A stretch of 62,342 nt of DNA, the filler included, from Hausera hauseri (taxonomy: Eukaryota), in the NCBI GenBank assembly GCA_046269625.1. It is 11 parts of 11 records of this genome, joined end to end, with 100 filler letters (N's around TTAATTAATTAA, not from the genome) between each part and the next. Parts side by side here need not be neighbours in the genome. Positions count along the whole stretch, not along the records: positions 36,066 to 43,487 come from JBJURY010015454.1; 10 more parts are not named here. One strand, given 5' to 3'. Shown piece by piece: positions 18,667-62,099 of this stretch. Both the position numbers and the translations under genes were made by a program. The notes beneath the pieces are model-generated. The model ran no database searches. It saw nothing but the letters and a program-made list of their open reading frames with translations, and was not told the origin of the DNA. Position 1 is the first letter of the stretch; each line of letters starts with the position of its first letter.

Positions 18667-18676
18667 GAACGGCACT

Positions 18677-21153: not shown

Positions 21154-22480
21154 TCAGGTTATACTATCATAAAGCCCGTCTCGGTACCCTTTTTCCTGTT
21201 TATCCCTCCTTTGATTTTTACGCTGTTTATTACAGTTTTTGGAAACTAAGAAAATCGTCACTGTTAATATGACAAGAAGGAAAGTTGACAAACCGAATAT
21301 AGTTATTATCGGTAAACTATTTGCCTCATTAAGCCCTTTTGTGGCAAGAACATTGCGGGTACTAAGATCTTTATATCGCGTTGCTCTTGATTCGTCATTA
21401 CGAGTCCGCACCGTGAAAGTTTTAGGTCTTCGACCCTTGGCAGTAATTCGGATCACATAATCGTGTTGCGGCAGCAAAGATTTACATTCGATTTCTCGAC
21501 TGTTTTTTAAAATTACGATATGATTAGTGTGTAAAGTTCGGCATTCAATTTTAACTTTGTTGTCTATCAATTCTTCTGTATAAAACAGAATTTTATTATT
21601 TTGCGCCAATACCTTAATTGGTATACTCCCCAATTCTTTCTCGGGTATTTCACTCGAAGTGATCATCGCAGTGGAATTACTCGTACGCGGAACAGTAGAC
21701 ACTTTTCTCGTAGTTGTTGGAAGCGGAAGTTTCCATATTCCGACCTTTGGGCGATATCCTCTCAAATATGTACTTGGTTCGTTTGGGTAAGTATTATACA
21801 GATCAAGTTGCAATTGATAATCGTGTTCTAACGGCAGTCTACAGCACGTAGTAGATCAGCGTCGTGCAATATAAGAATACTCTATGGACGGGGTTGAAAA
21901 GTTTAATGGTATGAACCAAATGGAGATTTGCCTATCTCCTGGTAATTCTATTTTAGTATTAATTCGAATACACTAGTTCTGGAAGTCCTTTTCCATCTCA
22001 ATAATGTTAAAATCTAGTGGTCTCCTAAATGGACCGGTATTCCGAATTTTTTCGTTTGTCTTGGCTTTGTTCGCATCGCCTGGTTCGGGCATTTTTATTT
22101 CAAATTTGGTAATTATGTAGGCCTGGGCTCCGTGCAGGTTATAATAGAACATTTGAAGTTTATATTTATATGTTTGATGGAAATCTTAGTTGCAATATTT
22201 CTGATAGGTTCCATACGGAAAATCACACGTCTTCATTTCGACACCAATCCTATTCATAAATATTATTTGAAACTTTACGCAGTTCTTAACCAATTCGCTT
22301 GCCTTGAACCAGGCACAGGGTTTGCTCCAATCCATATTGTATACTCCAAGTGACTGCAAGTTTTGCATATCCTTTCGTCTTTCTGCATATTGCCGTTTCT
22401 CGGTCAGGGTTATTGATCTTACGTTTGGCATATATGAGGCGATTAATGACAAGGCAAGAACTATTTGTACATATGATATC
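21154..22480 (-). pseudogene. Type I membrane protein with FN3-like repeats, in frame with the integrase tail
   Basis: Signal-like YVQIVLALSLIASY, a single frame with 3 stops, FN3-like LPLEHDYQLQL and LLPQHDYVIRITA, TM IITIFGLSTFLLVILTVTIFLV, and a basic tail ending GLYDSIT. Confidence 0.65.
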
Positions 22481-25418
22481 GGTCTTGTGGCTATCGATGA
22501 CGTTTTCCCTTCTTGCTTGGGTAGTCTCGGATTATCTCTGTCCGAACGCAGATTATAGCGTTTGTTCGGCCTTATTTCCATTCTAGCCACTCTTTGTATT
22601 GATATGACTTTTGCCTTGCCATTTCTATTAATATAAACTGTAGTTGGCGTGATTCTGATAACTTCGTATGGTCCTCTGTTGTTCGGGTACGTTTCAAAGA
22701 TGTACCTTTCTTCGCTACTGGATAGTGCACATATATCCAATTCCCTTGTTCTAGATCGTGTGGTTTAGCCTTTTTGTCATATTGCTTTTTAAATTGTTCT
22801 TCATATTATTTGGATAATTCTTTAGCTATTTTCCAACACTTGTGTAATCTCATCTGTAATACTTCAACAAAGTTTCGCTCTAACTATTTCGTTTTAACTG
22901 TATGTGGTATCATTCCTAAATCTGTGGATAATACAGCTTCTCTGCCATACATCATAAAAATGGAGTAAACCCTGTTGCAGGATGTGGTGTAATGTTTATG
23001 GCAAACTGTGTGCTCTCTAAAAATTCGCCCCAATCTTTCTTGTCCTTCTCAACCACGGTGGATAAGATCCGTATAACTGTTGCATTCATTTGTTCAAACA
23101 ATCCGTTGCACTCAGGATGGTAAGCCGTTGTGGTTAATTGTTCAATCTCGAATATTTTGGTAATTTTCTCAAAGAGCTCACTTGTAAAGTTTCTTCCTCG
23201 GTCTGTCAAAATTTGTTTAGGAGATCCGTATCTACAGTTAATCTTCCTTACTACGGCTTCTGCCAGAGTTTCGGCCTTCTGGTCCATTAATGCTATAAGC
23301 TCGACAAAATGAGTTAATCGATCTACACATGTTAGAATATACTTATTATTTTTGTGAGTTGTAGGTAACGGCCCTACAATATCCATGGACATTGCTTGCA
23401 TTGGTCTGTCCGGCACGTTTATCGGTTTAAGTTCGGCGATGTAGTTCTTCACTTTTCTCTGTTTGGTTGCACATACCTCGCAAGCATTCACCCAATTTTT
23501 TACGTCAATATAAACGCTCAGCCAATAATAATTATTTAATATTCTCTCTAATGTCTTCTTTCATGACATGTGTCCGACTAAGTAATAGTCGTGTTCGTCC
23601 ATTAGTAATTTTGTACGTAATCCTTTTGGTATGACTACTAATTTTCGTCCTTTCCGTTCATAATACAATAAGCTTCCGCGGTTCATGACTCCTGTTGCAC
23701 AGTATTTATGACCATGTCTTTGCAAATGCGTTCGTAGTTGGTTACCCTTTGGCGTTATATTGTTTCCGACAAATTCGATGATTTGTTGTATAATTTTGTC
23801 CTTCTTTTGTCCGTTAGAAATTTTAATTACTTTATCCATTTTTAGAACCCGTTGTTTATCTACTAATTCTTTGAGTTGCGCTTTTCCCATTACAGTGATC
23901 GCGCTTGTTTTGGTTTTGAGTCTTCATAATGCATCGGCATCGACATGTTTGCTTCCGGGTTTGTACTGAAATTCAATATTATATCGTGAGATCTATTCGA
24001 TCCATTTTGTTGAGTCTACATGTCGGATTATTTGCTCTGCCTTTCAAGGTTGTAACGGCTTTACGATCCGTAACAGTTATAGTCTTCTGTCCGTAGACGT
24101 ATACGTTAAAGTATTGTAGAGCTTCTTTTACAGCTAACGTTTCTAATTTTGTAACAGAATAATTCTTCTCAGCTTTTTTTAGTGATCGTCCTCCGTATGC
24201 GATTGGAGGTTCCAATTCTTCATCTTCTCGTTTTTGAGTTATCTCGTACCCAATGCCTTTTTTGCTTGCATCCGTTTTAATTATGAACGGTAGATTAAAA
24301 TCAAGATATCTTAAAATGGGTTCGCTAGTTAAGATTTTCTTCATTTCGTCAAAAGCTTTTTGTTCAACATCATTCCATTTCCATTTAATCCCCTTTTTAA
24401 GCAAGCGATACAAGGGTTTATTTATTTTTGAATTGTCCGGTACATAAGTGGCGTAATATCCTCATAAGCCTAACCAGTGTCTTAACTCTTTCGAATTTTG
24501 AGGTTTCATACAATCTGATATCTTTCTCAACAGTGATTTATCCGGTTTTTATCTTCTTTCTCCAACTATATGTCCAAGATAAGACACAGAGTTTTGAGCA
24601 CATTTACATTTCAATCCGGCTTGTTCTATCCGCATGATCGTGTCTTCAATGTCTTTAGATGTTCTTCTTCCGTTTTGGATGCAACCATTACATCGTCTAG
24701 ATATGCGAACGCGTGTTTTAGTCCCATTAACATCTTATTCATCATTGGGGTAAAAATAGCTGGTTATGTAGTTATTCCGAATGGCATGACGTTGAATTCT
24801 TACACACCGTCGTGCGTTTTAAACGCAGTTTTATAGCGGTCTTCTTCCTCTATCTCTACTTGCCAATATTCAGATTGTAGATCAAGTGTGATGAACCCCT
24901 TTGCTCCGGAAAGCCTATCTAGGGCTTCTTTTACCGATGGTAGTAAAAATGAATCATTCATCATAAATGTGTTTAACGCTCGATAATCGATACAAAATCG
25001 GTGCTTCGTAGTACTTTTCTTCTTAATCATGAGTATAGGGGAATACCACAATCGGTAGCTCGGTCTAATTATGTCGGCCTTTAACATTCGTTTTAGTTCT
25101 TTTGTTATCGCCGGTCTTAACGAGTGTGGAGGAGGATACCATTTCGGCATCTTTTGGTCTTCTAAATCAGTTTTCTCATTGGAGCCAGTCTTTTTCTTAA
25201 GCCGAATTGTTAGTCATAAGGCTTTGACTCTGCCAATGTCCTGTTCGTCTTTAGCGATAACTGAGCTATAATGGCAAAGTAATTCGTAAAATCGGCAGTA
25301 TGACTCGGGCGAAAATTTAGTTTCTACGTGAGGTGGAAATTCGGCACATTTGTAAGGTTTTTCTTCAATCGTTATTGCTGACACTCTATAAGTGTGCCCC
25401 AAAGTTGTGTTACCATAT
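22480..25418 (-). mobile_element. Gypsy pol (RT-RNase H-integrase), decayed
   Basis: RFCIDYRALN, LDLQSEYWQV, YLDD, IKTDASKKGIG, H..H/CxxC, MDIVGPLP, LTDRGRNF, AYHPECNG and GPY. Confidence 0.95.
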
Positions 25419-25518: not shown

Positions 25519-28500
25519 TACTGTCTGGACTGCTTCTCGTAGGTTGTCCATGTCATAGTTACTGTCAATGTATTTTATTACCTTTTCTGATTCTGTGTGA
25601 GACAGCATGACATGGTTATGCGTTATCATTTCTACTCGTCTGTTCGTTGGTATCCAAATCTTACCTGTTCGTATTTTTATTATTACATCTTCTAGTATAA
25701 ATCTTCCTTGTTTTCTTCGGGAAATGCTTTCTTTTATTTCTTCTATTTCCTTGCTGTCTTTCTGGTATTGGTGTGTCTGCTGTTTCTTCGACGTTTATTC
25801 CCCAAGTCTTGCTTTTCTGCATTTTGTCGTTGTCGTGTTGTTGTAGACATTGGCTACATGTTTCGCAACTCGCGCGAGATAGCATATCTGCGTTCGCATG
25901 ATCTGTGCATTTTCCTTACTTCAGATTAATATCTAGACTGGAAAGATAGTTGATCCACGTCTAAAATTGGGAGGTTATCGGTTTTTTGTCTTTACCAAAA
26001 ACGTTATTGCCTTGTGGTCCGTTCTCAATGTGAACCGTTTCCCGGATAAGTAATGTTTGAAATGTGGACAGAAATAATACATGGCCAGTAGTTCCTACCG
26101 AGTTATACATTATCCTTCAACGCACCCCAAACTATCCTTCTGTGACAGTACTTCTCCAATTGTGTCGAAGCTTGCGTCCGTATCGAGGATAAATTCTCTC
26201 TTGAAGTCAGAGAAACCTAGTATTGGTAGTGTGGCTAAAGCTCTTTTCATTGACTCGAAAGAATCATTACATTCCTCGGTCCATATTAGTTTCTTGTTAT
26301 TAAGTCCGCATAGTTTCTGCAATGTTTTGGCCTTTACTGCGTAACCTTGGATAAATCTTCTTTAATAGTTGCAGATCCCTAAGAAGCTTCTCAAATTCTT
26401 GACGCATTTTCGTTTTTCAAAGGACTTAATTGCTTCCAGTTTTTATGGGTCTGTCTGTATCCCTTTGTCATTCACTATATGCCCTAAAAATTTTACTTTT
26501 TTCTTGTGGATGTCATATTTCTCTGGGTTTACTCTGAGACCTGCTTCCCTGATCCGCTGCAATACCTTTCCTAGTATCCTATAATGCTCTTCTAGCGTCT
26601 TATAGAAGATTAGTATATTATCTAGGTATACCACTGTTTGTTCAATGTCCCCTAGTACTTTATTCATTAGTTCTTTACAGGTTCCCGGGGCTACTGCTAT
26701 ACCGAATGGCATCCTGTCAAAACAGAATTGCCCTAATTTGGTTGAAAACGCCGCCTTCAATTTGGAGTCTTCCTCTAACTAGACTTGATAGTATGCATTC
26801 CTTAGGTCGATTGGCGTGAAAAACTTTGCCCCGTATTAAACTGTCAAATATCTCTACCACGTTAGGCATGGGGAAGGCCTGTCGTTCCGTTATAACATTC
26901 AGCTGTCTGAAGTCCAGGCATATTCTTACATCGTTCTTGTCTTTCTGCCATACGCATCGGATGGTCTCGTCGATCTTTTTCTCTAGGTTTACTGGTTGCC
27001 TGTGAGGTTTGATATTAATCGGCGCTCCTGTCATGTCTATTCGGTGTTTGATGAGAGATGTGCACCCTATGTCCCACTTGTCGGCCATGAATACCTCTGG
27101 GTATTTCTGTATAATGTTGAGTAGCTCTTTATTGTCACTCACCTGAAGAGCTTCCTTCACCCTGTTGACTCGTTCTTGGTTTGTCACCTTACGGCCGAAT
27201 TTGGCTTTCAGGTTGCATATATCGTGCTGTAATGTTTCCGTTTCCATGCGTTTCCATCCAAGTTCTATTCCGAATGCCTTTTTCAGGTCCACACTACCTA
27301 TTATTTCTACACTACCAGAAATGTCACACGTCTCCTTAGACTCTTAATTTCTACGTCTGTTGTCAGTGTGCCCAGGCAATCTAAGGGGCTATTATTCGCG
27401 CATCGTAGTGTGGTATCTGATTACTCTACGTGTGTATTTATTAGTTTATCCACGGTCTTCTTGATTATAACGTTTACCCTGGCCCCTGTGTCCAATAAGC
27501 AATCTTCCCATCTGTCTTGTATCTTTAATTTGATTCCTGGTCGTACATTAAACATCCTGCATGATATCTATTCGACATACAATTCGTCTAGCGTGAAGAT
27601 CTGTGTATCGTTCCCACTTTCCTCCATTTTGTTGAAGGAAACTTCCTGGAAATTTTCCGTTTTCATAAATTTCGGTACTTTTTCCTGTGTCCTTTTATCC
27701 ATCACCATATCTCCATGTCCCCTTCTTCTTGATCCATCTATACTGTTTGATATACTACTACTATTATACATAACGATATTATGGGAGACTGAATCTATTG
27801 TAGTGCCCCGATTTGCTTCATTTCTATCGAGGTTCTGCCTTTTGGGGCAACTGACTCTTGTTCCGATTCTGTTTCTTCTTTCTCTGTTTGCGACTTCCCC
27901 CTGTCTTCTGTTCAAATTATTCCCTTACCTTCTTTTTACTTTGTATGTATCCCATCCTGGTTCTCTTCTCCTCTCCAGCCTGGTGTATCACTCCTTTTCG
28001 CTATGTCCTCTATGGTGATATCGCGCACTGCTAAGGTTTATACAGTTTTGTCTGATGTGTCCCTGCTGATTACATCCGTAGCATCTTCTTCGTTTTCTTT
28101 CAGGATACTGCCTGTTTATTTGCCCTTCGTTTCCACATCCAAATCATTTAATCGGTCTCTGTGTGGTGCAAATTCTGCTCGTATGTCCTTCCTTCTGGCA
28201 TGTCCAACATTTTAATCCACTGTTTGGTGTTCTAGTTGCCGTCGTGTTGGTTCTAGAAACGGGTTTCCTGTCGTTTCGTCCTGCCACTTCTTGGTAGCTT
28301 CTTCTACCGATCCCTGGATACTCCTTGACCGTGCTGATTTCTTCTGTCTTAATTTTTCTTTCATGTGTCTTCCGTATTTTCTCCTTTATGGTTTTCACGT
28401 CTCGTTTGTCACTGAGGCATATCTCTCTTCTCATCTCTCTATTGTTACAACATTGGAACAAAAGTTCCTCTTTCAGAGTCTCGCGTGAAAGATTGTGTTT

Positions 28501-29143
28501 TATGACTTTATCCAGAAGTTTCTCGATTGCCTCGAAGTAAGCCTCCGGTTCCGCTCCATTCATTCTGTACTCGAGCGCTTCTTTCAGATCTTCGCACAGC
28601 GTTGAGGATCGGGCGAAAGTCTTCCGTAGCCGGTTTTGATATCCAGTTATTTTCGCATCTACTGCCTTGTATCTTTCTAGTGCTTCTTCCTCCAAGAGGC
28701 ATTCAACCATGATTTCTCGCTTCGCCGCCGGGGTGTTCATATATTTAAAGAATTTTTAACATCTTTTAATGAACTTCTCCACGTCGTCGCCTTTTGTGAA
28801 TTTGTTGGGTAACAATTGGTTTGCGAAAATGTGCATTGTGGCGTAAGTCGCCATGTTGGCCGCGGACGCGTCCACGCCGTCCATCTCGTCGCCCAGCTTG
28901 GGTAGGGTTGGAAAATTCTCGCCCCCCTAGTATGGCCGCTAAAGCAGAATTTGATCGTTTGTAATTATTCATTGCAAAGTAAGACCAGTTGTTGAAAATT
29001 TTATTCTTGAGTCTCAAAGTACTCATTTGGAGACAAATTTTCCTACAATTCAAAAATTAAATTATACTTTTAATATTACATTTTTAATTTAAATTCATGA
29101 TCGAATTTTAAAATTTAAAAATGTTCTCAATTATATCCTCACA
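25519..29143 (-). mobile_element. Gypsy element: 5' LTR 28854-29143, PBS, gag with CCHC knuckle, protease, RT, RNase H and partial integrase
   Basis: LTR TG..CA followed by TGGCGAC, CWTCQKEGHTSRIC, LLDTGA (about 27490), RICLDFRQLN, YLDN and LDTDAS; many frameshifts. Confidence 0.93.
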
Positions 29144-29995: not shown

Positions 29996-30204
29996 CAAAA
30001 CCATGATTCTAACATCCTTATTTTCTTAAATATTAAGTTGTTTTGGTACCCATTTTTATCTTCTATTTCGACATTAATCTTATTTTATATTGGAAACAAG
30101 TGTAATCGCCAAATCCTACCCAAAAGCCACAAATTTTATAGTAGGGTAAAAATGAGGAGTCTGCACCACCACCTCCTCCCCATCCGAAGGGATCAATAAT
30201 TCAA

Positions 30205-30946
30205 TTTTGCACATGGTGCACTATCGATCGGTAGTGTGCTATGCGACGGTGCCGTTAGGCACCGTTGCTATGCACATTTATGCACATTTCACAAATCGAT
30301 CGCTGCATTTTGCAAAATTGCTCGAATTGATCGGGACAATGTGCTAATCGATAGTGTACATCAGTGCACATCGATTGGTGCACAGTGCAAATGAGCATCA
30401 CATGTGCAAGTGTGCAAAAATCAATAATGTCGGATTTCCGATAATTCCAATATTGATGATTAGCACATGGCACCGGGTGAAACCGAAAGCACATACGATG
30501 CACCATGTGAATGTGCAGTTAGAATTTAAATATATTGATTGGTTTTCGAATAATTGCCAACTGGGGCAGAATGCCCATAGGCCTTTCCGTTATAAAATGA
30601 AAATCAATAATATCAATATGACACATACTGGCGGGTAGAGTACTTGATGTACTATCGTTCAGTGAAATACTCGAATCAAGTGTGCTCTTGGATACGGTTG
30701 CTAAGGCACTTTTTCACTTTTCACATATTGGTCACTGCAACGTAAGATTGATGGAATCGATTGGTGTCAAGTGCAGGTAAATAGAGCACATCGAGATGCA
30801 CCTTGATATATACTGTGCAGTGCAAAAGAACATGTGCCAGTATGCAAAAATCAATAATATTGGATTTCCGATAATCCCAATATTGATGATTAGCACTTGG
30901 CACCGGGTGCAATCGAAAGCACACATGATGCACTGTGCCAATGTGC
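30205..30946 (+). repeat. Dispersed repeat with an internal tandem unit of about 430 bp; a reverse-complement copy lies at 36540-37330
   Basis: gcaaaaatcaataat.t.ggatttccgataat.ccaatattgatgattagcac occurs twice here and twice, inverted, in contig 8. Confidence 0.85.
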
Positions 30947-36065: not shown

Positions 36066-36445
36066 TCATTAGATTCTTCGAATAGTGCATGATTGACTGA
36101 GTTTTCGAGTTTGAATAGCTAAATGTTCGACTTGTAAGCTCGAATTCCATTATATAACATCATATTCCCATTCGGCACACATGCTTTCCTATCCAGCCCC
36201 GCTATTATATTTATCGATTTCCGCTTCACTGGACATCAAATGCACATTTTGCTTAATTCGAAATATTGATTTTTATGCCCATATAGTACATTTTCATGGA
36301 ATAATTTTTATGTACAAAGGGGTTTTCATATACGAGGAATCAATTTTCGGTGTTCGATTTTTCGAGTAGTTCGATATTCGATATTCGAGCCAAAATTTTT
36401 CGAATTTCGAATTTTCGACTTGAAATTCGAGTTCGCCAAAGTCTA
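36066..36445. repeat. TTCGA/TCGAA-rich palindromic MITE-like remnant
   Basis: Dense TTCGA(A/G) motifs ending gagttcgccaaagtcta. Confidence 0.4.
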
Positions 36446-36539
36446 TTTTCTATCTGTCGCCGCTAAATGTTATATCGAATTTTGCTTCCTCAGAGCCTAA
36501 AAACATACTAATTCGCCGAATTTTGCACTTTAGATCGAT

Positions 36540-37330
36540 ATTAATCGATAAATAATGGATAAATTTAAATTCTAACTACACATTCGTATATTACACCATG
36601 TTTCCTTTCGAATGCACCAGGTCACATGTCCCAATCATCTATATTGGATTTATCAAAAATTCCATATTATTGATTTTTGCACACTTGCACACGTGTTTTT
36701 GCACTGCACACCACATATCAACGTGCATTTCGATGTGCTCTATCCATTAGCTTTTCACTCCGATCAATTCAATCAATCATACGATGCACAAGAGCAAAAG
36801 TGTGCAAAGTGAAAAAGTGCCCTGGAAACCGTATACAAAAGTACACATTACTCGAGTATTCCACTGATCGAAAGTACATCACGTACTGCATCCGCCAGTA
36901 CATATGCAATATTCATATTATTAATTTGAAATTTATAGCGGAAAGGCCTGTGGTGGTTCGGTCCCACTTGCGAATTATGTGAAAACCAATCATTCGATTT
37001 AAATTCTATCTGCACATTAATATAGCGCATCATGTGTGCTACCGATTTCACCCGGTGCCGAGTGCTAATCATCAATATTAGATTTATTGGAAATCCAATA
37101 TTATTGATTTTTGCACACTTGTACATGTGCTGCACACCTGCACTGTGCACCAATTGATGCATACTGATGTGCACTATCGACCACCATTTTGTCCAGATCG
37201 ATTCGATCAATACTGCAATGTGCAGCGATCGATTTGTAAAATGTGCCAAAGTGCACCTAGCAACCGTGCCTAGCGATACCGTCACCTAGCATTCTAAAGA
37301 TCGATAGTGCTCCGTGTGCTCTATTGATTG
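36540..37330 (-). repeat. Second copy of the repeat family at 30205-30946
   Basis: Reverse-complement similarity across both tandem units. Confidence 0.85.
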
Positions 37331-37386
37331 GCACATGTTCAGTATCGATTCCTGGGGGGTGGGACCGAACCGCCATTTTTCCCCTA

Positions 37387-39870
37387 TTAACGGTCTACGC
37401 ATGTTAGTATATATTTGTTATTCTTGTGCGTCGTGGGTACTGGTCCCACGATGTACGTCAATATGGCTTTCATTGGTCTATCTGGTACAGCTGTCTGTTT
37501 CAGCTCTGCTATGTAATTCCACATTTTCCTCTGCTTAGTCGCCCATACTTTGCAAGTGCTTACCCAGTTTTTCACATCACTATATCTACTAGGCCAATAG
37601 TATTTGTTTAACGCCCTATCGAACGTCTTCTTCCAGGACATGTGTCCAGTCAAATACGAATCGTGTTCGGCCATTAAAACTTTAGTCTGTAGAGTTTTTT
37701 GAATAACTACTAATATTCTTTCCTTTCGTTCGTAATACAACACTTTTTCATTGTTATTGTTCTTGGAGACACAATATTTATGTCCACGTCGTTGTAAATG
37801 TTTCGCTAACTGGTGCCCTTTTGGCATTACGTCTGCTTCAGCGAAATCCATGATTTGTTGGATAACTTGATCTTTCTTTTGTTCGCTTGAAATTCTAGTT
37901 GCTCCGTCCGACGCTAAGGTTCGTTGTCGATCTACTAACTCTTCGAGCTGGATTTTCTTCATCGTCACAATAGCACTTTGTTTTCATTTTTAATAGTAAC
38001 AACGCATCAGCATCAACATGCTTCACACCAGGTTTATATTGGAATTCAATATTATATCTTGAGATCTCTTCAATTCATCTATTCAACCTACACGTAGGGT
38101 TGTTTGCTCGTCCCTTTAAATTTGTAACTACCTTGTGATCGTAACTATTAATATCTTCAGTCCATAGACGTAAACGTTAAAATGCCTTAAGGCTTCTTTT
38201 ACTGCTAACGTTTTTAGTTCTGTCACTGAATGGTTTTTTTCTGCTTTTTCAGGAAGCGTCTTCCATAAGCAGTTGGATGTTCTAGTTCTTCGTCTTCGCG
38301 TTTCTGTGCCAATTCATATCCGATATCTTCTTTACTTGCGTCTCTTTTAATAATAAACGGTAAGTTAAAATCAGTACTGGTTCGCTATTTAGTATCTTCT
38401 TCATTACGTCGAACGCCTTTTGTTCAACATCGGTTCATCTCCATTTCGTTCGCTTTTTTAATAATCGGTATAATGATTCATTGATTTTTGAGTTCTGCGG
38501 TACGTAGGTAGCATAATATCCACATAGACTTAACCAATGTCTCAGTTCCTTTTGGTTCTGAGATTCCATTCAGTTTGAAATTTTATTCAGTAATGATTTG
38601 GAGGCTTGGATCCTTCTTCGCCAACTATATGGCCAAGATAGGACACGGCGTTTTGGGCCAATTTGCATTTTTTGGGGTTTACTTTTAACCCGGCTTGTTC
38701 TAATCTCATAAGAGTGTATTCAATATCCTTCAGATGCTCCTTTACGTCTTCTGATACAATCATTGCGTCATCTAAATACGTAAATGCATGTTCAAGTCAC
38801 ATTAGCACTTTATTCGTCATCCTGGTTAATATGGCTGGACCAGTGGTAATTCCAAATGGCATAACGTTGAATTCGTATACGCCATCATGAGTTTTAAACA
38901 CTGTTTTATAACGATCTTCATCCTCAATCTCTACTTGCCAATATCCGGATTGTACGTCCAGAGTGGTGAACTATTTTGCTCCTGAGAGCCTGTCTGGAAC
39001 CTCTTTCACAGATGGTAAAGGAAACAAATCTTTCATCATGAGAATATTTAATACTCTATAATCGATACAAAATCGATGTTTTGTGGTACCTTTTTTTAAC
39101 CATAAGAATAGGGGAATACCATGATCTGAAACTTGGCCGGATTATATCGGCCTTTAACATACGTTCTACCTCCTTGGTTACCTCCAGCCTTACAGAATGC
39201 GGCGGCGGATACCATTTTGGCATTTTTTGTTCTTCGAGATCGATTTCATAGTTGGAACCAGGCTTTTTCTTAAGTGGTATAGTGAATTTTAACGTCTTTG
39301 CTCGGCCTGTATCTTCTTAGTCCTTCGCAATGATTGATTTATATCGACATATTAATTCGTAAAACTGGTAATAAGCTTCTGGTGAAAACTTTGTATCGAC
39401 GTGTGATGGAAATTCAGCGTATTTATACGGTTTCTCTTTAACCGTTACTGCTGATACATTGTAGATATGCCCTAGAGTAGTATTAGCATATAACCTCATT
39501 GAAGTATGAGGATTATTCATTATTTTTACAGGTATTCGTCCCGACGCTACTCGGGTTAATATATTGCTCAATATTATATTCGGGTTTAGTGTTTATTTTG
39601 GCTCAAAATATGCTGGTAAATCGTCGTCTTGACAGATTTGTGCAAATAAGAACAATTCCGTTCTGGGAGGAATGTTTTCGTCGACTGCAATCCAGACTTC
39701 TCCGGGTTCCCTCTCTTTATTAATCTTATTTCCTTTCATTGGTCCGAGCTTGATTAACTTCGAGGCATTCAAATCTACCACGATGTTTGGTAGACGTCTC
39801 AATATATCACACCCTAGCACCATATTATTCCATTATAGAAAATTCATATTGGAATATTTGTTCCATTATT
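37387..39870 (-). mobile_element. Gypsy pol (protease C-terminus, RT, RNase H, integrase N-terminus), a close relative of 22480-25418
   Basis: VLGCDIL, HRFCIDYR and YLDD. QLEELVDRQR..QKKDQVIQQI..PKGHQL..HLQRRGHKYC matches QLKELVDKQR..QKKDKIIQQI..PKGNQL..HLQRHGHKYC. Confidence 0.95.
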
Positions 39871-41910
39871 TTAAGATTAGGATTCCACTTAAATTTTGGT
39901 CTTGATTCTTGTCCGAGTATATTACTTTGCGATCATCTACCGGCTGGCGGCATAATTCGGATTTTTCCATGTTTTGGTACATCTTCCGTAGCACGCTGTA
40001 TTGTTTTGTCACTTCATAGGGATCATCGTAACTGAAAGGCTTTCGATAAATTTCCGAACTACAGGAGTTAATAGATCTCTTATTGCTGTCTTCGTATTGC
40101 GGTGCCGAAGGGGGCAGCATTGGTAAAGGCGGCCTAAGCGTCTTACGATTGCTTATCTTGGAGACCGCGTCTCCTCCCTTAGGCTCATCATCATCCGAAT
40201 CATTTCTTCGAAATTTTGTATTTCTTTGTCCTATAAAAAATATAGGTTTTCTCTTTTGTTTCCGATTATAATAACCAACGTATCTCTCCACGTCACTTTT
40301 CCATTTGTTTTCTTTGTAGGCCTTCAAAAATTTTCCAAACAGTGTTATGATCGCGGTCAAAATTTTGCATGAAAATCCGGTTAGAGTAAATATTTCGTTG
40401 TCATTTATGATGGATTGAATTATAACCTTTATAAGTTGTATCAAGAAATAGATGGCTAAAAATCCTGATGCAGCTTGTCCGAAAATTAAAAATCCTCCCC
40501 AGATTTTATATAGTATTTCTGTAGTGACTCTTTGATAATGATTAACGCCAAGTAGGGATTCCCATTTTGCTTGATAGCGAGTGTCATCCATCACCGTTGA
40601 CATAGCTCTATTTAGCTCATGTGTACGCTGTCGAGGGAAGGCTAGGAATTGTCTTAAAGCTTCAATTGCCTTTGGTCGGTAAATCCATTTACTTGCGGTG
40701 TCAGTGAACTTATCATCCGCTATGCATTTTAACAAATTTTTTTAGTTAATTTTCCCCGCGTGAGTATTATTCCTCCATTAGGCAGACTTACCAAATCTGT
40801 CTCACTCCTCTTGAACATAGGTTCGCCTAAACCTGCTTTGCATTCTTTGAAAACAATTGGTTGTGTCGCGTTTTCTAGCAAGACTCTATTGAGTGGCATA
40901 ACCAATCGAGGAACGTTTTGATATATGATTGGCAATTCTTGAATACAACGTTTTTCCTCCACGTTTAGGGATAAATCTCGTTTTTCGCATCCGTAGGTCA
41001 ACAGGACTTCTCCGGTAACTCTTCGAAAATGCCTTCTTTCATTGAAATTACGGGCGATGCTAGTTCTGGATTTGCGTATAATAAGGCTAGTGTGGTCCTC
41101 ATGATTTCCGTATCCAATTTACAGTCACCTGCGATCATCTTGCGGTATAACTCTGCAAGTCCAATTTGCCCTTTATAATAGAAGTAATCATCTCTATTCT
41201 TTAAGTAATCTTTCCGTGGTTTCGTTAAATTTATTTCTTTTATTTTAATAAAGGTACAATCGTTCATAGGTGGTGGGGTCCAAATAACTATTGTATTTCG
41301 GAAAGTACAGGCACCATCTTGGATATGACACTTCTGGTTTTCGGTATATTTTTGTGTAACTCTATGGAACATCACCTATTAATTCCTCATCTCTGTCTTA
41401 TGGAAATCAACTACTACTATTCATGCTTCTCTTCCTTTTCCTGTATTGTATTCACCTCATTTAGACTATCCCGTGTGCATGTTTAATTTCCCAGTTGCTA
41501 CTTTATACACCCGAATTATCATTCCTGGTTTAATTTCTAATTCCATCCCATCCCATCGCAATCTTCCGGTTTCCTTGGCTTGTTTGCATTGTTGTTGATC
41601 TAAATCCATAGGTATTAGCGGTGTCGTTGGATTTGCCATTGACGAATGTCCGTGTATATTTTCACAGTAGAAAATGCTTCGCAATTGTCGTAACATGCAC
41701 TCTATTCCGTCTATTGCGATTAGTTCGCGTTACTGATACAAGAAATACTTTTTCTCAATGGTTACTAATTTGTGGGGTCTGGCATCCTCATATAGCTCCA
41801 GATCTATCAGGGAATATTTTTGACCTATTTTAAACTTATCACAGTCATATACCGTAATTGCGCCGAGTTGTCTTATTAACATAATAAGTTTTATTAGTTT
41901 AATCATCCAA
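39866..41910 (-). pseudogene. Chuvirus-like (class III, gB-related) envelope glycoprotein, frameshifted
   Basis: Signal-like segment then VYDC...YSLIDLE, C..HGHSS, QCKQAKETG, CHIQDGAC....IVIW......C, C........CIQELPI.Y......MP..RVL, and C-terminal TM GGFLIFGQAASGFLAIYFLIQLIK. The Cys spacing is recalled from chuvirus-type G proteins. Confidence 0.7.
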
Positions 41911-43487
41911 TTTGATTCACTATCTCTTGCTGAGTTAGTTGGTATTAGATTCCTTACCATGTTTTCAATTCTAGTGGTCAACTTGTTTCTATCGTCGTCG
42001 TCAAATAGCTTTGACATATTTATCTCACTAGGTTTTTTCCTAGCAGCTTTTCGGATCAATCTAATGGTTCTATTAAATTCATTTTCCTTTAAGGGATTTG
42101 TTTTGATTGCCAAGTACAATATTACTTTCCCTAATTCTTCCTTAGTATTCTCTACTATAATTTTCTCGATTAAAACTTCTTCAGGTAAGTTGCTCTTGTT
42201 CATTTTGAACCGAAATGTTCTCATTATCTTTGCTGCGTCGTATATTGCTTTTTCCTTTTCATCTAACATCTCGTTTCTTGGTCCCGAATAGTTCATTATT
42301 TTTATAATGTTTCTCAGCAACTCGTTTAATTCTTCGCTATCGGAATTAACCGCGGGCATGGATAGGTGCCTTAGTTTTCATATCAGAGTTGCACTTTGGT
42401 CAATATCATCCTTATTTTTCTCGGCCTTCCAACTAGTCGTTTCTGTTTCAGCGCAGTTGGTACTTCTTCACTAATCGGTACTAGATTCTTATCTTATTGT
42501 TTCTTATCTTCCTCACTTTGGAGGTAGTCAAAATACATGACAGGGTCTCGGATTCCCATAATGTGCCCTACACAGTGTTCATTTCTAACTTTTCTTACAG
42601 CCTCATCTTTTGTCTGTTCATCGGTAATTATAGCCACTATTCGATTTTGTTCCTCCGGAATATTTCCAACGTCTGTTAGTAGCTCAGGAAGTATAACCGA
42701 TAATTTACTTAATCTTTCCCACTGTTTTGTAATATACATTGTTTTACTTCTCTAACCGATGTTATCGTTGTACATTTAATTTCTCTCTCTTCCATCCATT
42801 CAGCTTATATTTTTACCTTAATCGTTGGTTCGGGTTTAGCATTTAAGAAATCAGCGTATTTCTTTATCAATAGTCTGAGTACTAAGCTATAAACGGTATT
42901 TTCGCTTTATAGTTTGGTTAATGTAGGGATCAATTGTCTCAGTTTACTCCCCGTTATGTTTACGTTAATCTGTTCAATTAATTCTTTCTCGGCCCGTGCG
43001 GGGTATAAGAGCATCTCCATATCAAATCGTCGATCTGTTGGACGAATATCCATTTGTTGAAGTTGGATGGGTGTTTTGGGGTTTTGGTTGTACACATCTT
43101 CCAAATAGGCATCCCATCCTGAGTCGTCTGTGACGTCTGGTAATCTATAATCTAGTAATACCGTGGACGTACTTCGTATATTCTCGCGGATCTCATTTAA
43201 TCTTGACTGTACTTCTCTCATTAAGTTGGTCCTAAATTCTGCTCCGTTCCCACATGCCAATTGTATTGTTTTTAATGTCGGACCTAGTTCGTCTGTAGGT
43301 AACAACCCTCTTCTTTCATAATCTGTTAATTCGGTCGTTACATGCGTTAACCATCTTTGCACAAATTCTCTTTTACTCGTTAACTCTGACTGCGTGATCT
43401 TATATTTATTTTTATAAGTCTCCAATTCTTTGCCTAATTCATCTAGCTTCGCAGCTCTTTACTTTGTGCGGAGTCGCAACTCTTCTA
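41910..43487 (-). pseudogene. Helical gag-position ORF upstream of the glycoprotein
   Basis: ORFs 42907-43425, 42494-42739 and 41730-42359; the last runs in frame into the glycoprotein signal segment. No diagnostic gag motif was recognised. Confidence 0.45.
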
Positions 43488-45194: not shown

Positions 45195-47500
45195 ATGAGT
45201 AATTCTGTGATGCCTATACGATTTCAGGAGCATTTTCAGCTTTTGACAATCGATAAAAGTGCTGCACCCTGACGATTGAACCGGATAAATTTATTTGCGT
45301 TCGAGAACGAGCAGGTGAAACATTTCAGGTTGTCGTTGCCGATCGAAAAGGGCCCAACAAATTCTATCAAATGGCCAATTTCTGCCGATTCTGCAATAAT
45401 GAATCCGATCAGTAAAGTGATTGCGTCGAAAGCCGGGAAAACTGCAAATATTTAACATTGAATTAAAAAGCAAAATGAAACTTCAATTTATCGGAGGACG
45501 TCATCTTTTGGAAATGGACGTCATTTTCGATGAATACGATTACTCTTGTTACGGAAAGTGTAGTGTTCCATTGGTCAATGGAAGGTGATTCAAGTCCTAT
45601 AAAAATATTTGATCGACATTCGTCGTTAAACGGTTGTCAAATCCTTAATTATCGTTGTAATCCCAGTATGAAATGGCTAATTTTAATCAGTATTTTGGCA
45701 CAGCAAAGTAGAGTTGTTGGTGCTATCCAATTGTACAGCGTTGATAGGAAAGTCAGTCGCACAATCGAAGGTCATGTAGCATCGTTCGCACATAAAAATC
45801 GAAAACACTCCAAATGCATCCACGTCGTTTTGTTTTCCCGTTCGCAGAACACAACAGGGAAAATTGCATACAATTGAAGCTGACCAGACTCCTACCGGAA
45901 ATCAACCGTTCATTAATAAGGCTGTCGATGTTATATTCTCACCGGAAGCAGCAGCTGATTTTCCAGTAGCTATGCATACTTCCAACAAGTACAATATAGT
46001 ATTTCTAATCACCAAATATGGTTACATCCACTTGCACGATATCGAAACCGGAACATACATTTATGTAAATCGCATCATCAGTGAAACAATATTTGTCACA
46101 TCACTGTACGAAGCCACCGCTGAAATTATCGGAGTAAACCGAAAGGGTCAGGTTTTATCTGTTTGGGTTGAGGAAGACACGATCGTTTCTTACATTACAA
46201 ATACTCTAACATGCCCGACTTGGCTTTACGAGTGACTAGCAGAAATAATCTGCCAGGCGGAGTAGACATTTTGGTTCACGATTCAACAACCTTTTCAGTA
46301 GCGATCAGTATTCCGAGGCTGCAAAGGTCGCAGCAAGTGCACTGAAAGGAATGTTAAGAACTGCGCAAGCAATTCAGCGATTTCAGCAAGTGCCTACTCC
46401 AAGAGGCAAATCGCCTTTACTTTAATCATTCGGAATTTTATTAGACCAAGGACAACTTCGCAAATACGAAAGTCTGGAACTCTGTCGACCAGTTATTTTA
46501 CTAGGCAAGAAACGGTTACTCGAAAAGTGGTTAAAGGAAGATAAACTTGAATGCTCCAAAGAACTGGGTGACATTGTTAAAGAGAGTGACCCCACATTGG
46601 CATTGCCCGCTTATTTAAGAGCAAATGTGCCTCAGACGGTTGTTCCGTGTTTTGCAGAAACGGGGCAGTTTCAGAAGATTATTCTGTACTCGAAAAAGGT
46701 TCGATTCACACCAGATTACGTATACCTGCTGAGAAATCTGATGAGAATAAATCTTGACCAGGGTCTACAACTAATTTTGAAGGAAGCTAAATTGACCGAT
46801 CACTTATCTCTCATAATTGTCTGTGATAGATTCAATTTTGCTCACGATTTGGTACTTTATCTGTACCGGAATCTACTGCAGAAGTACATTGAAATATACT
46901 TGCAAAAAATGAACTTCCAGCGACTGCCATTTGTCTTTGGTGGTTTGGTCGATGTCGATTGTTCCGAACAGGTTATTATACAACTCATAATGGTTATCAG
47001 AGGCCGGTTCAGTACCGATGAACTTATTGTCGAAGTCGATAAACGGAATTGACTCCAACTGTTGTGGCCATGGTTAGAATACCGAATCCACGATGGATCC
47101 GTTGGACCGGCAACTCACTATGCACTGGTCAAAGTCTATTGGAATAGAAACAACAACCAGTGACGAACTCTGCAAGAAAACCAGTTTTACAACAGTCGTG
47201 TTGTGGGAAAGTACTGTGAAAAGAGAGATCCCCATTTGGCATGTGTTGCATACAAACGCGGTCAGTGTAATCAGGAATTGATTAAAGTATGTAACAAAAA
47301 CAGTTCCTTTAAAACCGAAGCACGATACTTGGTTTGTTGTAAAGATCCTGATCTTTAGTGTAAGATTTTGGGCGACAGCAATGAATACAGACGTCGGCTA
47401 ATCGTCCAAACAGCATTGTCAGAAACTCTGGTTCCCGAAGAAATCTCCATCGCTGTCAATGCACTTATGGCCGCCGATATGCCCAATGAATTGATTGATG
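45195..47500 (+). pseudogene. CLTC: Clathrin heavy chain processed pseudogene (N-terminal part, intronless, internally deleted)
   Basis: [76 protein letters not shown] and LIIVCDRF; many frameshifts and stops. Confidence 0.96.
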
Positions 47501-50869: not shown

Positions 50870-51955
50870 TTATGAGGTTTTCGTGTGTATCAGGCGTTGT
50901 ATTTTCTCAGAATTTAGTTGTCTACTGTAGGTACTGAATATCACTGACTTATGATGTCTCAATGTTTTGGTGTCTGGTTGTTGGAGTGGTTTTGGAAGAA
51001 CAATATCAGCTTCTGCACTGTTGGATGTTATCTCCTGCGAATGTAAGTCAGAAGGGAAAGAAGTGACTGAGGGTGTATGATTGATGTTATCTCGTGTAGT
51101 ACTAGAGGATAATGGGTCGAAAGAATAAGGAAGGTTTTCAATGACAAAAGTATAATCTGGAAAAGGAATAGGAGGACAATTGAAAGGTGAAGTAGAAGCA
51201 GAAACAGAAACAGGTACAGAAGGAGATGTAGGAGTCAAAAAGGGAGTTGATGTTTCAATAGGAGAGGTATCATCAACGAAAAAGGCCGGTTTTACGTTGT
51301 TAATATGAACTGCGTTTTCCTTGCCGTGTTTAAGGATGATGGCGTTGTGAGAGTGTAACTGGATCAGTTTATAAGGTCCCAAATACTGTGGTTGAAAACC
51401 GCTCGGCGTTTGATTTTTCAGCCAAACGAATTTTGCTGAATAAAGGTCATCTGGTAAATATGTTTTGTCATTGTGTAGCAACCTACAAAATGTGTCTTTA
51501 CTGGCTGTAACAAAGTGGTTTTGTGCCACTCGTATTGTTTCGTCCGTAGGTGTGTCTTCTAAAGCCGCCAGTTCGAACAAGGACCGTACAGGAGCACCAA
51601 ATAGGGCTTCTGTAGATGAGAATCCTGTAGAAGTGGATATAGTGTTCCGCCAGCCAAGCAGAACAAACGGTAGGAGAGTTGTCCAGTTTGCATTGGATTC
51701 TGCCATAATTTTAAGCGATGCTTTTAGCGTTCGATAAAACCGTTCAAGAAGGCCGTTTGATTGAGGATGACAAGATGTCGTTTAGATGTGGCTTATCCCC
51801 AATCGGTTAACCAGTGATTTAAACAGATTTGATTCAAATTGAGGGCCTTGGTCCGAGACGATGAAACAAGGAGATCCGAACCTACTAATCCACGTACCAA
51901 TGAAAGCATCCGCCATGCTTGGGACCATCGCGACGAACGGTCCATCATGGTCAGA
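50870..51955 (-). mobile_element. Gypsy integrase core and C-terminus
   Basis: IVSDQGPQFES, HPQSNGLLERFYRTLK, LPFVLLGWRN and YLGPYKL. Confidence 0.92.
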
Positions 51956-52496
51956 NNNNNNNNNNNNNNNNNNNNNNNNNNNNNNNNNNNNNNNNNNNNT
52001 TAATTAATTAANNNNNNNNNNNNNNNNNNNNNNNNNNNNNNNNNNNNNNNNNNNNTGAGCAAAAGTTAATAGCGGTTCGGCTTACAGAAATTTAAGGGAG
52101 AGGCGCTAGAAGAAAAAACAAAACTGAAAATGCTCACGTGTAACGCGAAACATGTTGCTAGCACGGAGAAAAATGTGTACAAATGATAAATCAATGTTGG
52201 TGAATTCAATGGACACGGTTGCAACTCAATTAGACCGTGGGAACGTGGGAAAAATCTGTGCGAAAATTTCAAACGGGGAAAATTTCCCCTTACACAAGTC
52301 AAACGGCGATGGAAATGAGTTGATGGAAATTGGTGTCAGAGCATATTTTGGAAAATGGATGAAAAAAAACGTATTTTTAACTTCTAACGATACCCAGATT
52401 CTCCAAGATAGCAAAGAAATGGTTAGTATTGCCGACGAATTTAATATATTTGATTTATCAGTTGATTTAAAACTGTTGTTTTTCATAGTTTGCGAA

Positions 52497-53695
52497 ATGG
52501 TAGCATTAAAAATTTTCAGGTCTTCAAATAATTATTTGATTCGATGTTTTGCATTTCGCGAAAAGCATGTTGAAATAATGCATGAAGTGAATATTCAAAT
52601 AATAAGTGATTCTTACCGAAACAGATTTTCTTACAATTCACCATCACAAAAACTTGATTTACGTGAAACGTGTAGCATTCTTGAGAAATTGAATGTTGAT
52701 ATTTCAAAAATATATAAAAGTAAATTCGTTGAATTCGACCTACCGACGAAGCATGGAAATAATGTTGAAAGCCATCTGGAAAATGCTGCTAAACGGATTA
52801 CTTCGCCTTTTTTGACACTTTTTAACGACGTCATTGGTGATTGGAATATTCCAACAATCCCAAAACAGTGGAAATTCTAAAGTGGATGGATGAAATACGA
52901 TAAAACCAATCAAAGTGCAAGTAAGGTTGACGTTCCAGATGAAGATCTATTATTTTTCGACGTTGAAATAATCACTGATAAAAGTCATCGGGCAGTAATT
53001 GCTGTTGCTTTGGAAGCCAACAATTCGTATTCATGGACGAGTGATCAGATGGTAAAGGGTATTCCACGGAATAATTTCAATATAACAAGCGATGAATTGG
53101 TTCCGATTTCCGATAGAATGAATAAATTTAAGCCGAAATGGATAATTGGGCATTTTGTTAGTCTCGATCGACAACAAATAATGGATGAATACTATATTGC
53201 AAGTAGCGCTATTTGGTTTATCGATACAATGTCGTTACATATTAACATTTGCGGAATGATGTCGTTACAGAGGAGTTTGAAACAGTCATTTGATAAAAAT
53301 CGTGTTGACAATAAATTATGGAGACAATTTTATTTAAATGATCGAGAAGATATTGATGATTTTTCTATTGAAGAAATTAGTGATAATGAAAAGTAGATCA
53401 ATGACGCTTCATTCATTGGCCTACAGGAAGGGTTCACACATTATTATTCCAAAAGTAATATTGCTACATGTAAAAAGTTGCAAGAAGTTTTCCTAAAGGG
53501 TTCTACGGAATTTGTAGTAAAAGATTTTTAAAGTCTAACCACATATTACGCTACCAATGTATTAACGACTGCTTTGATATGTCGAAAATTATGGCCTGAA
53601 TTTCCTGATCGTTTCCCTAATTTGGTAACAGTTGCCAGGGTGCTTGAAATGGGTTCTTTTTATCTTTCAGTTAATGAGAACTGGAACAAATATAG
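52497..53695 (+). pseudogene. POLG: Mitochondrial DNA polymerase gamma catalytic subunit, exonuclease region, intronless decayed copy
   Basis: ExoI FFDVE, ExoII IIGHFVSLDR, FIDTMSLH and FPDRFPNLVT...LEMGSFYLSVNENW.KY. Confidence 0.9.
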
Positions 53696-56624: not shown

Positions 56625-57760
56625 CATTCTCTTTTTTTATAATAACATTTACACCTTTCAAACCCACCTTTCTTCTATCCTTGGTTCTTCAGACTTCTTC
56701 CTTACTCATCACGGCGCTATCATTCATATTAACGAAACTTTATCTTTTCCAAATCGAGCTTGCTTCAACATACATCTCCGTATCCGTGGTGGAATGAATT
56801 CCCCACCGATCACTGACACCACGGATACAACCACCACGAAAAAGCCAATACCCATTCTTTATTACTCCAAACCAAACACTCCGCTTTCTTCAATCGATGA
56901 AATTCCCATAAAAACCTTACCAATACTCAACACTGCACTGAATACTTCGTAGGTAACGAAAAGTCCAGTAAAATGTGGCTTCATTTGCACAAACTCTGTC
57001 TCCAGTCTAGTGGTATCACAAAATCCTTATCTAAAGCCCACAGCTTGCTCTATCTCCTCCCGAATTCCATAAAAGCCTCAATACACAATCTGCTAGAGAT
57101 CTTTCAACACCCTGACCCTTATACCCAACTATTCGATGCTGTATTGAAAGAGACCGAATTTTCCATTGACTTTATAATGCAGCATTTCTTCAACGAAAAT
57201 GCACTGGGCACACAAAAACCCAGCGACTTCTTACGCACTTCACTGGCACACTTGCGTATTCTTGGAGTAACTAAGGAACAAAACCCTGATATTCTACGCC
57301 ATTATTTTCTGAATGCCCTACCTATCCAAATACTGGCCTTTCTTACCGTGGTGAAAGACTCCACGCAGCTTGAAAAATTGGCCGAATTGGCCGATAGGAC
57401 ATGCGATGTCCTCCACATAAATTCGCAACCCGTAGTTTCAGCAACAGTTGCTGCTAACGACATATAAACAACTAACACGTGCATAGAACAGCAGCTAAAT
57501 CAGTTACGTGCTAAAAATATTGCATTTCAGGCAACTATCAACAACATAAATAATAAATTAAATGAATTGTCTCTGTCCCGACGAGGGGGTTTTGTCGTTT
57601 CCCGTGCCCGTTCTACGTCACGAAACCGCTCACCATCACCTGCGCGTTCGTCGATCTGCTACTACCACAGCAGATTCAACACTAATGCTCAGAAATGCTG
57701 CCTGGGTTGCCAATTTTACAACAGTAAATTTTCCTCCAACACCGTTATCTGCATTTACCA
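56625..57760 (+). mobile_element. Ubiquitin-like domain ending RIRGG (copy 3) and Gypsy Gag
   Basis: SDFFLTHHGAIIHINETLSFPNRACFNIHLRIRGG, with RIRGG at 56779-56793. Gag has LGTQKPSDFLR, RSRxRSPS and CYYHSRF...A.KC...C. Confidence 0.85.
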
Positions 57761-59444: not shown

Positions 59445-62099
59445 TCAACGAGGTAACACAAAACACTGCACATTCATACTATCATTTTTTATGGCACCAG
59501 GCAACTTTTTCAATTCGCCAAATGACTGAAACTCCACAAATCCATCAAAACAATCATTGATCAAATTTTCTGGTCGCTCATATGCCGCTCGTCTCGCTCC
59601 AGAATTTTCCCGACTAAATCGTTTCATCAAGGCATTCAATCCCGTTTCCTGATTGACAATTGAAATCTCCACAATCCGTGACATTGGCCACGGTAAATTT
59701 TTGTCATTCGGTCCATTCATCAATTGGAATGCCAACCACAAACCATCGGAGAATTTCGATATCCAAAAATACAATCGCAATTTGTAGCCAGTGGAATTTG
59801 CGTTACTGAAAAATGGTTTGCTGTATTCCCATTTGTTATTCATGAACTTTGTTGTAATGTTAGAAATTTTCCATGAAAATTTTTCCATTTCCCCTCCATT
59901 CGTGCCAAATTCCGTTTGAGACGGTTCCCAATAAATAACTTCGGCATCCTTTTTCTTGTTTTTATTCACGACAGAAAAATCACTCGACGGATTTTCCTAC
60001 AACACAACTCGTTAGTTTCGCAAAATTCCAATGAACCTTGTCGAGTCTCGATGATCTATTCTGCAATTCAAAGTCACTATCAGTGTTGCTGTCACGGAGG
60101 TCGGTGTCTTCATCATAGCGACGTATTTTTAATGGGCTCATTTCGGTTGGTTTTGTTGTTTTGCATATATCAACCCGTTTTTTCTTTAGAAATGCATTGA
60201 CAACACGGTGTTTTGTCTGTGGATATCGATAGAATCAAATCAATTATTTCATATTTCACAATCGTACCTGTTTGTTGTCACTATGATCTGACTTTGACTT
60301 TCGTTGAATATTTGTCAAATCGACCTGAATACAACTCATATTTGATGGAAACAGAAATAGACAAACACATTATCCATTAGAAATAAAATAAATTAAATGG
60401 ATTTATCATTAAATTTTATATGAATTAATAATACTTTTACAAACGAATTACTGTCGTCAAATGTTGGAATTTCGTCTTCTTTCTGAATACTTCTCATTCA
60501 TTTCCCCATTAAATGAAAATGATTAACATTCATCATCAGTCATCAGAATGACAATACACAAATGATTTTGAATATTAAATTAACTGAATACAATTTTAAT
60601 TTGTCAAATTATTAACAACAATTCATTAATAATCAATTATTATTGTAATATTGATATAGAAAATGATGGATGGGTATTTTATGAAAATGTTAAATAAATT
60701 GGACTATTGAATGGGGAGTAGAATGGGGGAGGGGAGGACGTAACTTGGAATTTGAATTTTCAAAATGATTTTTCATTTTGTATTAGATAACACAACGTTT
60801 TGTAAATAATTTTCATAAGAATCCATATCAAAATTACACGTCATTCTAATAGCAAATGCAAAAAGTCCTATCCATTTCTGTGACGGATAAATGCCATTTG
60901 GATAATTGATTATAAATTCTAGATGAGAATTTTGTATGATAACAACCGTATGTTTTATCAATGGATTCATATCATAACAATGTCATATTACTAATTTATT
61001 AAATTCTTTACATTTCATATCAATAATTTTTATAAGTTTACCTACAATTGATTGTATTCGTAATGAAGTTATTATTACCAATAAATAAAATGTTATTTCA
61101 AATATAATTTTCATGTCAAATTATCAAATTGTCCCATAATTCTTATTGAAAATTTAAATCAACATGACAATGAACTTCAACTTCATTCCAAACAATTGTT
61201 TGTTATGTCTATCAAAAAGAAGTCGATGGTCGTTACTTCATTTCCTTTTGTTTAATATCATAGACAATCCATTGCCAAATTGTAATCTTCCTTCTTGTCC
61301 ATCGACGTTTAATCGTAACCCAAAATTTTATTTTACCAATTTCACACTAAATTCCACTCGACTGTTACCATTTCATCATTTCAATAAAAACCCCATCTAA
61401 ACGATACTACAAAATTTGCTCACCCGATCATTCTTCAACGCCGCCAAATCTGACAGAATTTCGTCCTGTTTTCGTCGGAGTTCGGCAATTTCTTTTATCG
61501 ATTCATTCTGAAACAAGAGAAATGGATTTCAAATACAACAAAATATTTACCATTCGTTTTTCTAATGATATAAATTTTCTTTTCCAAATAATATTATCAG
61601 CACCATCGTAATTTTCTTCTCCATCTACAGCTGTTGTCGATTGTTCATTGAATTGATCGTTATTGAAGTGATCTTTCATATGTTCGTACAATTTCTTTAA
61701 TTGCCATTTCTCACCACAATTCTGATACGGGCATTTCACATGCAAATATGACACTTGCATGTTGCCCGGTGCGTCTTTCACAATGTTCTCGTTCACGTTC
61801 AACAATTGTTCGCTACATTCCTCCTTTCCACCTGGACAAATTTTTTCGTCATTGCTCAAGTACTCCGTAATACATGCTGAACAAAATTTGCATCCACATG
61901 GTGCAAAACATGAGTCAATCAATATCTTTTTACAAATGATGCATTTTAAATTATCTGGAATGGTGGATACAAAATGAATATCGTACAATCGCAAAATTCG
62001 AAAAACGTCAGTCATATCTTTTTGATGATAATTTTTCAAATAATGTTTATAATTGTAAATGTCAAACTATATAGGTTTAAAAAGGTTGTGTTTATCCAT
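59445..62099 (-). CDS. TRAF: TRAF-like gene (RING, zinc finger, coiled coil, MATH), spliced and possibly disabled
   Basis: RING CIIC..PCGCKFCSAC..CP and zinc finger CPYQNC..H..DH. MATH FSWKI..YSKPF...GYKLRL..LM.GPND..LPWP. Introns at 61508-61550, 60325-61423 and nearby. In-frame stops near 62068 and 59980. Confidence 0.8.

Follow-up and report, generated by a model that had tools for sequence, protein, structure and literature searches.

A broken Ty3/gypsy copy with the envelope gene before pol

The window analysed here is a 62,342-nucleotide stretch of Hausera hauseri DNA (GCA_046269625.1), composed of 11 pieces of 3.9 to 8.4 kb each. Note that the pieces are joined into one string by N44-TTAATTAATTAA-N44 spacers, so that adjoining pieces are not genomic neighbours. 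The element that places env before pol occupies the minus strand of the 7.4 kb piece 36066-43487 (JBJURY010015454.1). Read in the coding direction, this copy contains a helical stretch, an internal signal, a chuvirus-type glycoprotein (PF24664), a transmembrane (TM) segment, a protease remnant, a Ty3/gypsy reverse transcriptase (RT), an RNase H and the start of an integrase. Its 5' side ends with the piece, at 43487, and its 3' side is broken off at 37387 by a high-copy repeat. The homologous stretches of the copy contain 15 stops, the RT is also broken, and tblastn with the relatives described below revealed at least six changes of frame. The copy is decayed and dead, and can no longer carry out any of the steps that we propose for its family.

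The repeat that truncates the integrase (36540-37386, no strand assigned) lies outside the element and matches 30201-30945 at 79% in the opposite orientation. Summed contig depth was 79,000-576,000 for the bins between 36066 and 37305, versus 457-21,034 over the element. Both repeats, 36540-37386 and 30201-30946, are very high-copy and show an internal duplication of about 434 nt; the one at 30201-30946 lies upstream of another gypsy element. Along the env-bearing element base composition is even, with an A fraction of 0.37 in the glycoprotein and 0.38 in pol. A search of sequencing runs identified one run that holds the stretch, with no RNA run among the matches listed; among the matches listed for this run, no contig spans env to RT. 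Scans of viral and metagenome contigs revealed no related locus.

The glycoprotein and its internal signal

ORF 41730-42377 passes, in one frame, from the helical stretch through a hydrophobic signal-like segment into the start of the glycoprotein, exactly as a preliminary description of this DNA had claimed. The signal-like segment (41859-41909, minus strand) has a hydropathy peak of 1.61, and a signal-peptidase site is predicted just before the conserved YDC start of the glycoprotein; this context is the same in all 11 relatives compared. The ectodomain itself (40490-41858, minus strand), which is chuvirus-type and gB-like and was delimited with PF24664 and a profile of relatives, is broken by stops and two frame changes, and about 88 residues are missing near 41220, where the two flanking halves abut. 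PF24664 (Monjiviricetes fusion glycoprotein) matches collinearly in three frames, over profile positions 9-227 (E 1.1e-13), 369-424 (E 4e-4) and 474-605 (E 1.3e-19). In addition, a profile made from 34 natural relatives matches the six frames of the window only at this glycoprotein (iE 1.8e-31, 4.8e-11, 1e-11 and 2.8e-32), and 11 of the 14 family cysteines are kept. Word-seeded searches for longer proteins with the glycoprotein pieces gave no match, which is weak evidence.

The preliminary description had proposed structure prediction against herpes gB as a check, and this check supported its assignment. The fold was modelled on a relative, P0128, which is 24-35% identical to the window pieces, and not on the broken copy. 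Built from a 34-row alignment, the model (mean pLDDT 77) has long beta strands and a 48-residue central helix, and every match listed by Foldseek was a herpesvirus gB, the top one being HSV-1 gB (E 2.6e-14). A second aligner gave Z 10.2 and rmsd 7.6 over 403 aligned residues, with modest TM-scores of 0.34 and 0.42. A class III fold is thus the prediction for the family, and homology extends it to the ancestor of the copy.

The region upstream of env

The helical stretch (41910-42377, minus strand) is in frame with the env signal, in an ORF of 215 aa. Its single-sequence model was all-helical, with a mean pLDDT of 48, and no family match was obtained in Pfam, PDB sequence, Atlas or structure searches; the closest structural match, with 84 residues aligned at Z 6.6 and rmsd 4.9, does not rise above the background expected of a helical model. 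Further upstream there is a broken coding region clipped by the piece end (42380-43487, minus strand; ORFs 42907-43458 and 42494-42751), which is covered by run contigs like the rest of the piece. The order had been described as gag-env-pol, but no gag is visible in these approximately 1.1 kb: neither Pfam nor a gag profile from the relatives matched in 42380-43487, and a further gag elsewhere in the window escaped the same profile. A weak match at 42972-42727 (iE 8e-4, chosen post hoc) corresponds to sequence found ahead of env in three relatives. The region may contain accessory domains, with gag past the piece end, and by analogy with the relatives gag would lie upstream of env in this element. 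For the two upstream ORFs the Atlas gave no usable match, and PDB sequences gave no match naming the region. The resemblance of 43206-43099 to Bcl-2 lacked significance (iE 3.8), and one of 40 shuffles scored as well as the pairwise match of P0272 to the upstream region (E 0.001).

From the membrane anchor to the integrase

Behind the ectodomain there is a TM segment (about 40462-40406) and a second hydrophobic helix, together occupying 40337-40462 on the minus strand, with hydropathy values of 2.18 and 1.80. They are followed by a tail or linker between env and protease (39866-40336, minus strand; ORF 39866-40741), in which a proline-rich motif aligns with P0029. The idea that this TM and tail ORF continues up to the protease-like VLGCDIL region was correct as to the frame, which the two share, but not as to the extent, because the ORF ends 45 nt before VLGCDIL and two stops (39868 and 39835) lie between. 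In that one frame the TM-to-VLG distance is 221 aa, versus 233 and 256 in two relatives.

What is left of the protease is a remnant of the C-terminal half of a retropepsin, in two frames (39755-39892, minus strand), detected with a profile of natural proteases as weak, collinear matches (iE 0.23 and 0.017); tblastn alignments to the relatives begin at 39832-39820. The earlier observation that no D(S/T)G motif is visible at the expected position was reproduced, since none is present in the three minus frames at 39700-40300. YDDPYEV was rejected as the protease site: its distance is about right (the median from the D to the LGxD glycine is 69.5 aa in 72 natural proteases), but it does not align to the protease profile. 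Between the protease and the RT lies a conserved spacer domain (39425-39751, minus strand), with 19-25% identity to three relatives; PDB sequences gave no dUTPase match and no other match that would name it.

The RT (38602-39320, minus strand; PF00078, E 7.6e-31) is of the Ty3/gypsy type and broken. Its best PDB match is the Ty3 RT (E 2.1e-38), the next group being caulimovirus-type (8r0s, 1e-25). The RT thumb/connection and the RNase H follow in several frames (37955-38590, minus strand), as traced by tblastn with P0029, P0035, P0122 and P0123, and the piece retains the zinc finger and first core strands of a truncated integrase (37387-37983, minus strand, one ORF of the same limits; PF17921, E 1.7e-15). 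Collinear tblastn alignments show that the copy has the PR-RT-RH-IN order of Ty3/gypsy elements (Metaviridae), with the protease as a remnant.

Intact relatives carry the same order in a single frame

A pol-only search among proteins of 1117-3556 residues gave 680 matches, of which 120 were listed. PF24664 was found in two of these 120, P0029 and P0035, which are also the two best RT matches (52%) among the 118 with a full RT. Both are single ORFs with the order glycoprotein-PR-RT-RH-IN, and both align collinearly along the window from about 42100 to 37393. A gag is recognisable in some of the relatives: Pfam matches PF03732 at the N-terminus of P0029 and also in P0276, and P0130 has a zinc knuckle. 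A HMMER search with the glycoprotein end and the RT start produced 178 matches (150 listed), and these, together with cluster members, gave five further glycoprotein-to-RT frames. There are thus seven single-ORF polyproteins (P0029, P0035, P0121, P0122, P0123, P0272 and P0274), whose high RT rank is partly selected, since five of the seven were found with a glycoprotein-bearing query or as its cluster members. They have the same order as the copy, to which their RT is 47-52% identical and their glycoprotein 21-44% by piece; they are intact, with DTG, and form their own RT clade, whereas the copy is broken and lies outside it.

Among approximately 280 stored proteins, 82 match the glycoprotein, and 18 of these have at least 150 residues behind the glycoprotein end. 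In all 18 informative relatives a DTG protease continues the chain, and the RT motif is reached in 7. A protein search shows fused forms only, so these counts mean that the fused form is common, universality not being implied. In this sense, env before pol in a single frame is a common layout among unnamed public proteins, and its protease is retained. P0152 was flagged with a protease ahead of its glycoprotein match, and several relatives have a Bcl-2-like domain, ankyrin repeats or at least two protease domains. The database record of P0122 (HBK71150.1) labels this gypsy glycoprotein-pol polyprotein a Flavobacteriaceae hypothetical protein; the sequence is probably eukaryotic DNA in a metagenome bin.

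We also built two quick RT trees, one of which kept 50 of 151 RT rows after thinning plus three window rows. An RT phylogeny had been suggested in the preliminary description. The copy and a sister element from the window were joined with 99-100% support, as a lineage of their own on a long branch, but they sit in an unresolved fork, and in a quick tree the single-frame relatives formed their own clade (98% SH-aLRT) with the copy outside. Since the trees leave the copy and its sister in that fork, we do not place the copy within the single-frame clade. Judged by its RT, which is no more than 52% identical to any sequence found, the copy represents a distinct lineage, and a common origin of its gene order with that of the single-frame relatives is neither shown nor excluded by these sequences.

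One polyprotein or another arrangement

We propose, with a probability of about 0.85, that the locus is a decayed copy of a Ty3/gypsy element with a chuvirus-type env before pol, likely as one polyprotein with a predicted herpes-gB-like fusogen and an aspartic protease of its own. This proposal draws on the domain order, homology and breaks observed in the copy, on the single-frame relatives with DTG, and on the fold predicted for one relative. The placement of the glycoprotein before pol, as first described, stands, with PF24664, RT and integrase collinear; the single polyprotein is found in the intact relatives but, given the 15 stops and at least six frame changes, not as an open frame in the copy. 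The same order could also have been expressed from separate env and pol frames, pol being reached by stop read-through, a ribosomal frameshift or a splice between tail and protease. The stop of the tail ORF at 39868 and the protease-like strand in another frame would suit such an arrangement, and in the parts of their article consulted (PMC13524379) Chary and Hayashi handle GAG, ENV and POL as ORFs, with gaps permitted between ENV and POL. However, the breaks are found throughout the copy, RT included, its one-frame TM-to-VLG spacing is near that of the two relatives, and the glycoprotein runs into the protease without a stop in 18 of 18 informative relatives, in a search that returns fused forms only; we therefore consider separate frames unlikely.

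The absent D(S/T)G had led to the suggestion that processing may depend on host peptidases, or that the site has decayed. A lineage devoid of protease activity would explain the three minus frames without the motif, and note that the run contigs, for which 40 of 192 differences were listed, make other copies legible only short of it. Such a lineage has nevertheless very little chance of being the right explanation. RT, RNase H and integrase lie in the cytosol, where signal peptidase and furin cannot reach them, and a furin-like R-x-K/R-R site is absent from the window glycoprotein pieces and from the P0029 and P0035 ectodomains. Moreover, all 18 informative relatives have DTG behind the glycoprotein, and decay affects the whole copy, not the protease alone. 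With DTG retained in every informative relative and breaks along the whole copy, the missing motif is likely to reflect decay, the second of the two options, rather than host-only processing.

The remaining explanation, a separate chuvirus-derived glycoprotein inserted into an env-less gypsy element, is largely refuted. Fossil chuvirus glycoproteins are frequently found close to gypsy fragments that have not truly captured them (Dezordi 2023, as far as consulted), and named chuvirus glycoproteins do match that of the copy. They do so more weakly than retroelement-borne ones, which outscore them on the C-terminal piece (85-69 bits, versus 61-55 for three named viral proteins), and the N-terminal piece obtained no match from these three. 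Instead of an insertion absent elsewhere, which the preliminary description had named as the outcome that would count against it, we found relatives that share the identical order in one frame. Run contigs are present in every one of the 30 bins of the piece and of the 30 bins across the env-protease junction, and coverage is continuous over both junctions, a supporting observation only, as summed depth is not copy number and the listed contigs never span env to RT. In the junction region 838 of 1065 contigs are less than 95% identical, which fits an old multi-copy family. Collinear relatives, continuous coverage and even composition together make a nested insertion very unlikely.

Relation to known elements

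The order is not undescribed: env before pol is already in print, and the copy is a divergent addition to that group. Ty3/gypsy errantiviruses with GAG-ENV-POL order and an HSV/gB-type ENV have been reported from Nematoda, Bryozoa and Platyhelminthes (Chary and Hayashi, eLife, PMC13524379), and that article also cites Sacco et al. 2022 on GAG-ENV-POL elements. As described in the parts consulted, these errantiviruses share with the copy an env before pol, a Ty3/gypsy RT and a gB-like, chuvirus-related glycoprotein with signal and TM, and the cysteine pattern of the copy resembles, by eye alone, six Schmidtea rows of supplementary file 2 of PMC13524379. In contrast to those elements, the copy is broken and partial, in a piece without gag, LTRs or primer site. 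In the text consulted the word polyprotein has no match, and that text does not state whether the three genes are in one frame.

A single polyprotein has been described for the planarian giant gypsy element Burro/GYPSM1, whose env lies in frame between gag and pol (Arkhipova and Yushenova 2019, PMC6431247, consulted in part). According to that source, the Burro env matches mononegavirus glycoproteins and is likened to gypsy Env, not gB; accessory domains (ubiquitin-like, Bcl-2-like, MATH) precede it, and a dUTPase-like domain lies between PR and RT. Burro-like giants exceed 25 kb and carry MATH, BIR, Bcl-2 and dUTPase (PMC6431247). Compared by description only, the likeness lies in the env in frame between gag and pol, for the relatives, and in the extra domain between PR and RT, for the copy; in P0128, moreover, the sequence ahead of env matches Bcl-2 weakly (E 1e-3), as is the case in Burro. 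The mosquito Anakin elements (Dezordi et al. 2020, PMC7642597, consulted in part) likewise carry a chuvirus-type glycoprotein on an LTR retroelement. They are, however, BEL/Pao elements, whereas the RT of the copy matches Ty3 best and the domain sets of the 120 listed pol matches are of the gypsy type. Our analysis thus adds a divergent, multi-copy lineage to the known env-before-pol group.

A proposed route of expression

Translation would start in the cytosol with gag and the accessory domains. The internal signal would then direct the glycoprotein into the ER lumen, where host signal peptidase would free its N-terminus, and the TM helix would act as stop-transfer, returning the chain to the cytosol. 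There, the DTG protease of the element would set RT, RNase H and integrase free. Budding particles would take the fusogen with them and pass from cell to cell. By this single-polyprotein route env and enzymes would be made one to one, without splicing. The behaviour of signal peptidase and of retropepsins is well established and is, together with the layout of the element, the basis on which we infer this topology and processing; like the particles, a single frame in the copy's own lineage is proposed by analogy with the relatives. A polyprotein of this kind must cross the ER membrane twice in mid-translation, which is testable.

A second membrane protein and other content of the window

Six of the single-frame relatives reach the integrase, and behind it four of them have both signal-like and TM segments, while the other two carry one. 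P0029, P0035, P0122 and P0272 (also P0045 and P0136) have a second signal-plus-TM protein there, in the same frame. It is possible, although doubtful, that this is a two-glycoprotein invertebrate retrovirus, in which the gB-like fusogen before the protease would work with the membrane protein behind the integrase as a receptor-binding partner, like gD or gH/gL for herpes gB. The comparisons made found no homology among the post-integrase membrane proteins of the relatives, and our literature searches found no description of a second membrane protein beside a gB-like fusogen.

The sister element (17004-25418, minus strand), with a pol 71% identical at the DNA level over 2131 nt and an RT 75% identical, may show what followed the integrase in the family of the copy. 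Behind its integrase there is a signal-like segment (about 22490-22440) and a TM protein (21154-21855) with a faint fibronectin-III hint (E 0.18). It also contains a 549-aa ORF (19157-20806) and a RING finger (about 19000-18900).

The window further contains decayed gypsy-type fragments of ordinary gag-pol layout, at 25519-28755, 10079-12658, 50870-51919 and 56901-57760. Two ORFs, at 2093-3923 and 15332-15970, resemble, as judged by eye, Polinton-type DNA polymerase B regions; Pfam gave only C2H2 fingers, in one of them. A clathrin heavy-chain sequence (45479-47052), in several broken frames and with no evident introns, adjoins RNase H remnants and is possibly a retrocopy. The other matches are a fragment of a mitochondrial DNA polymerase exonuclease (52128-53396), a MATH domain (59445-59996) and a RING finger (61503-62066).
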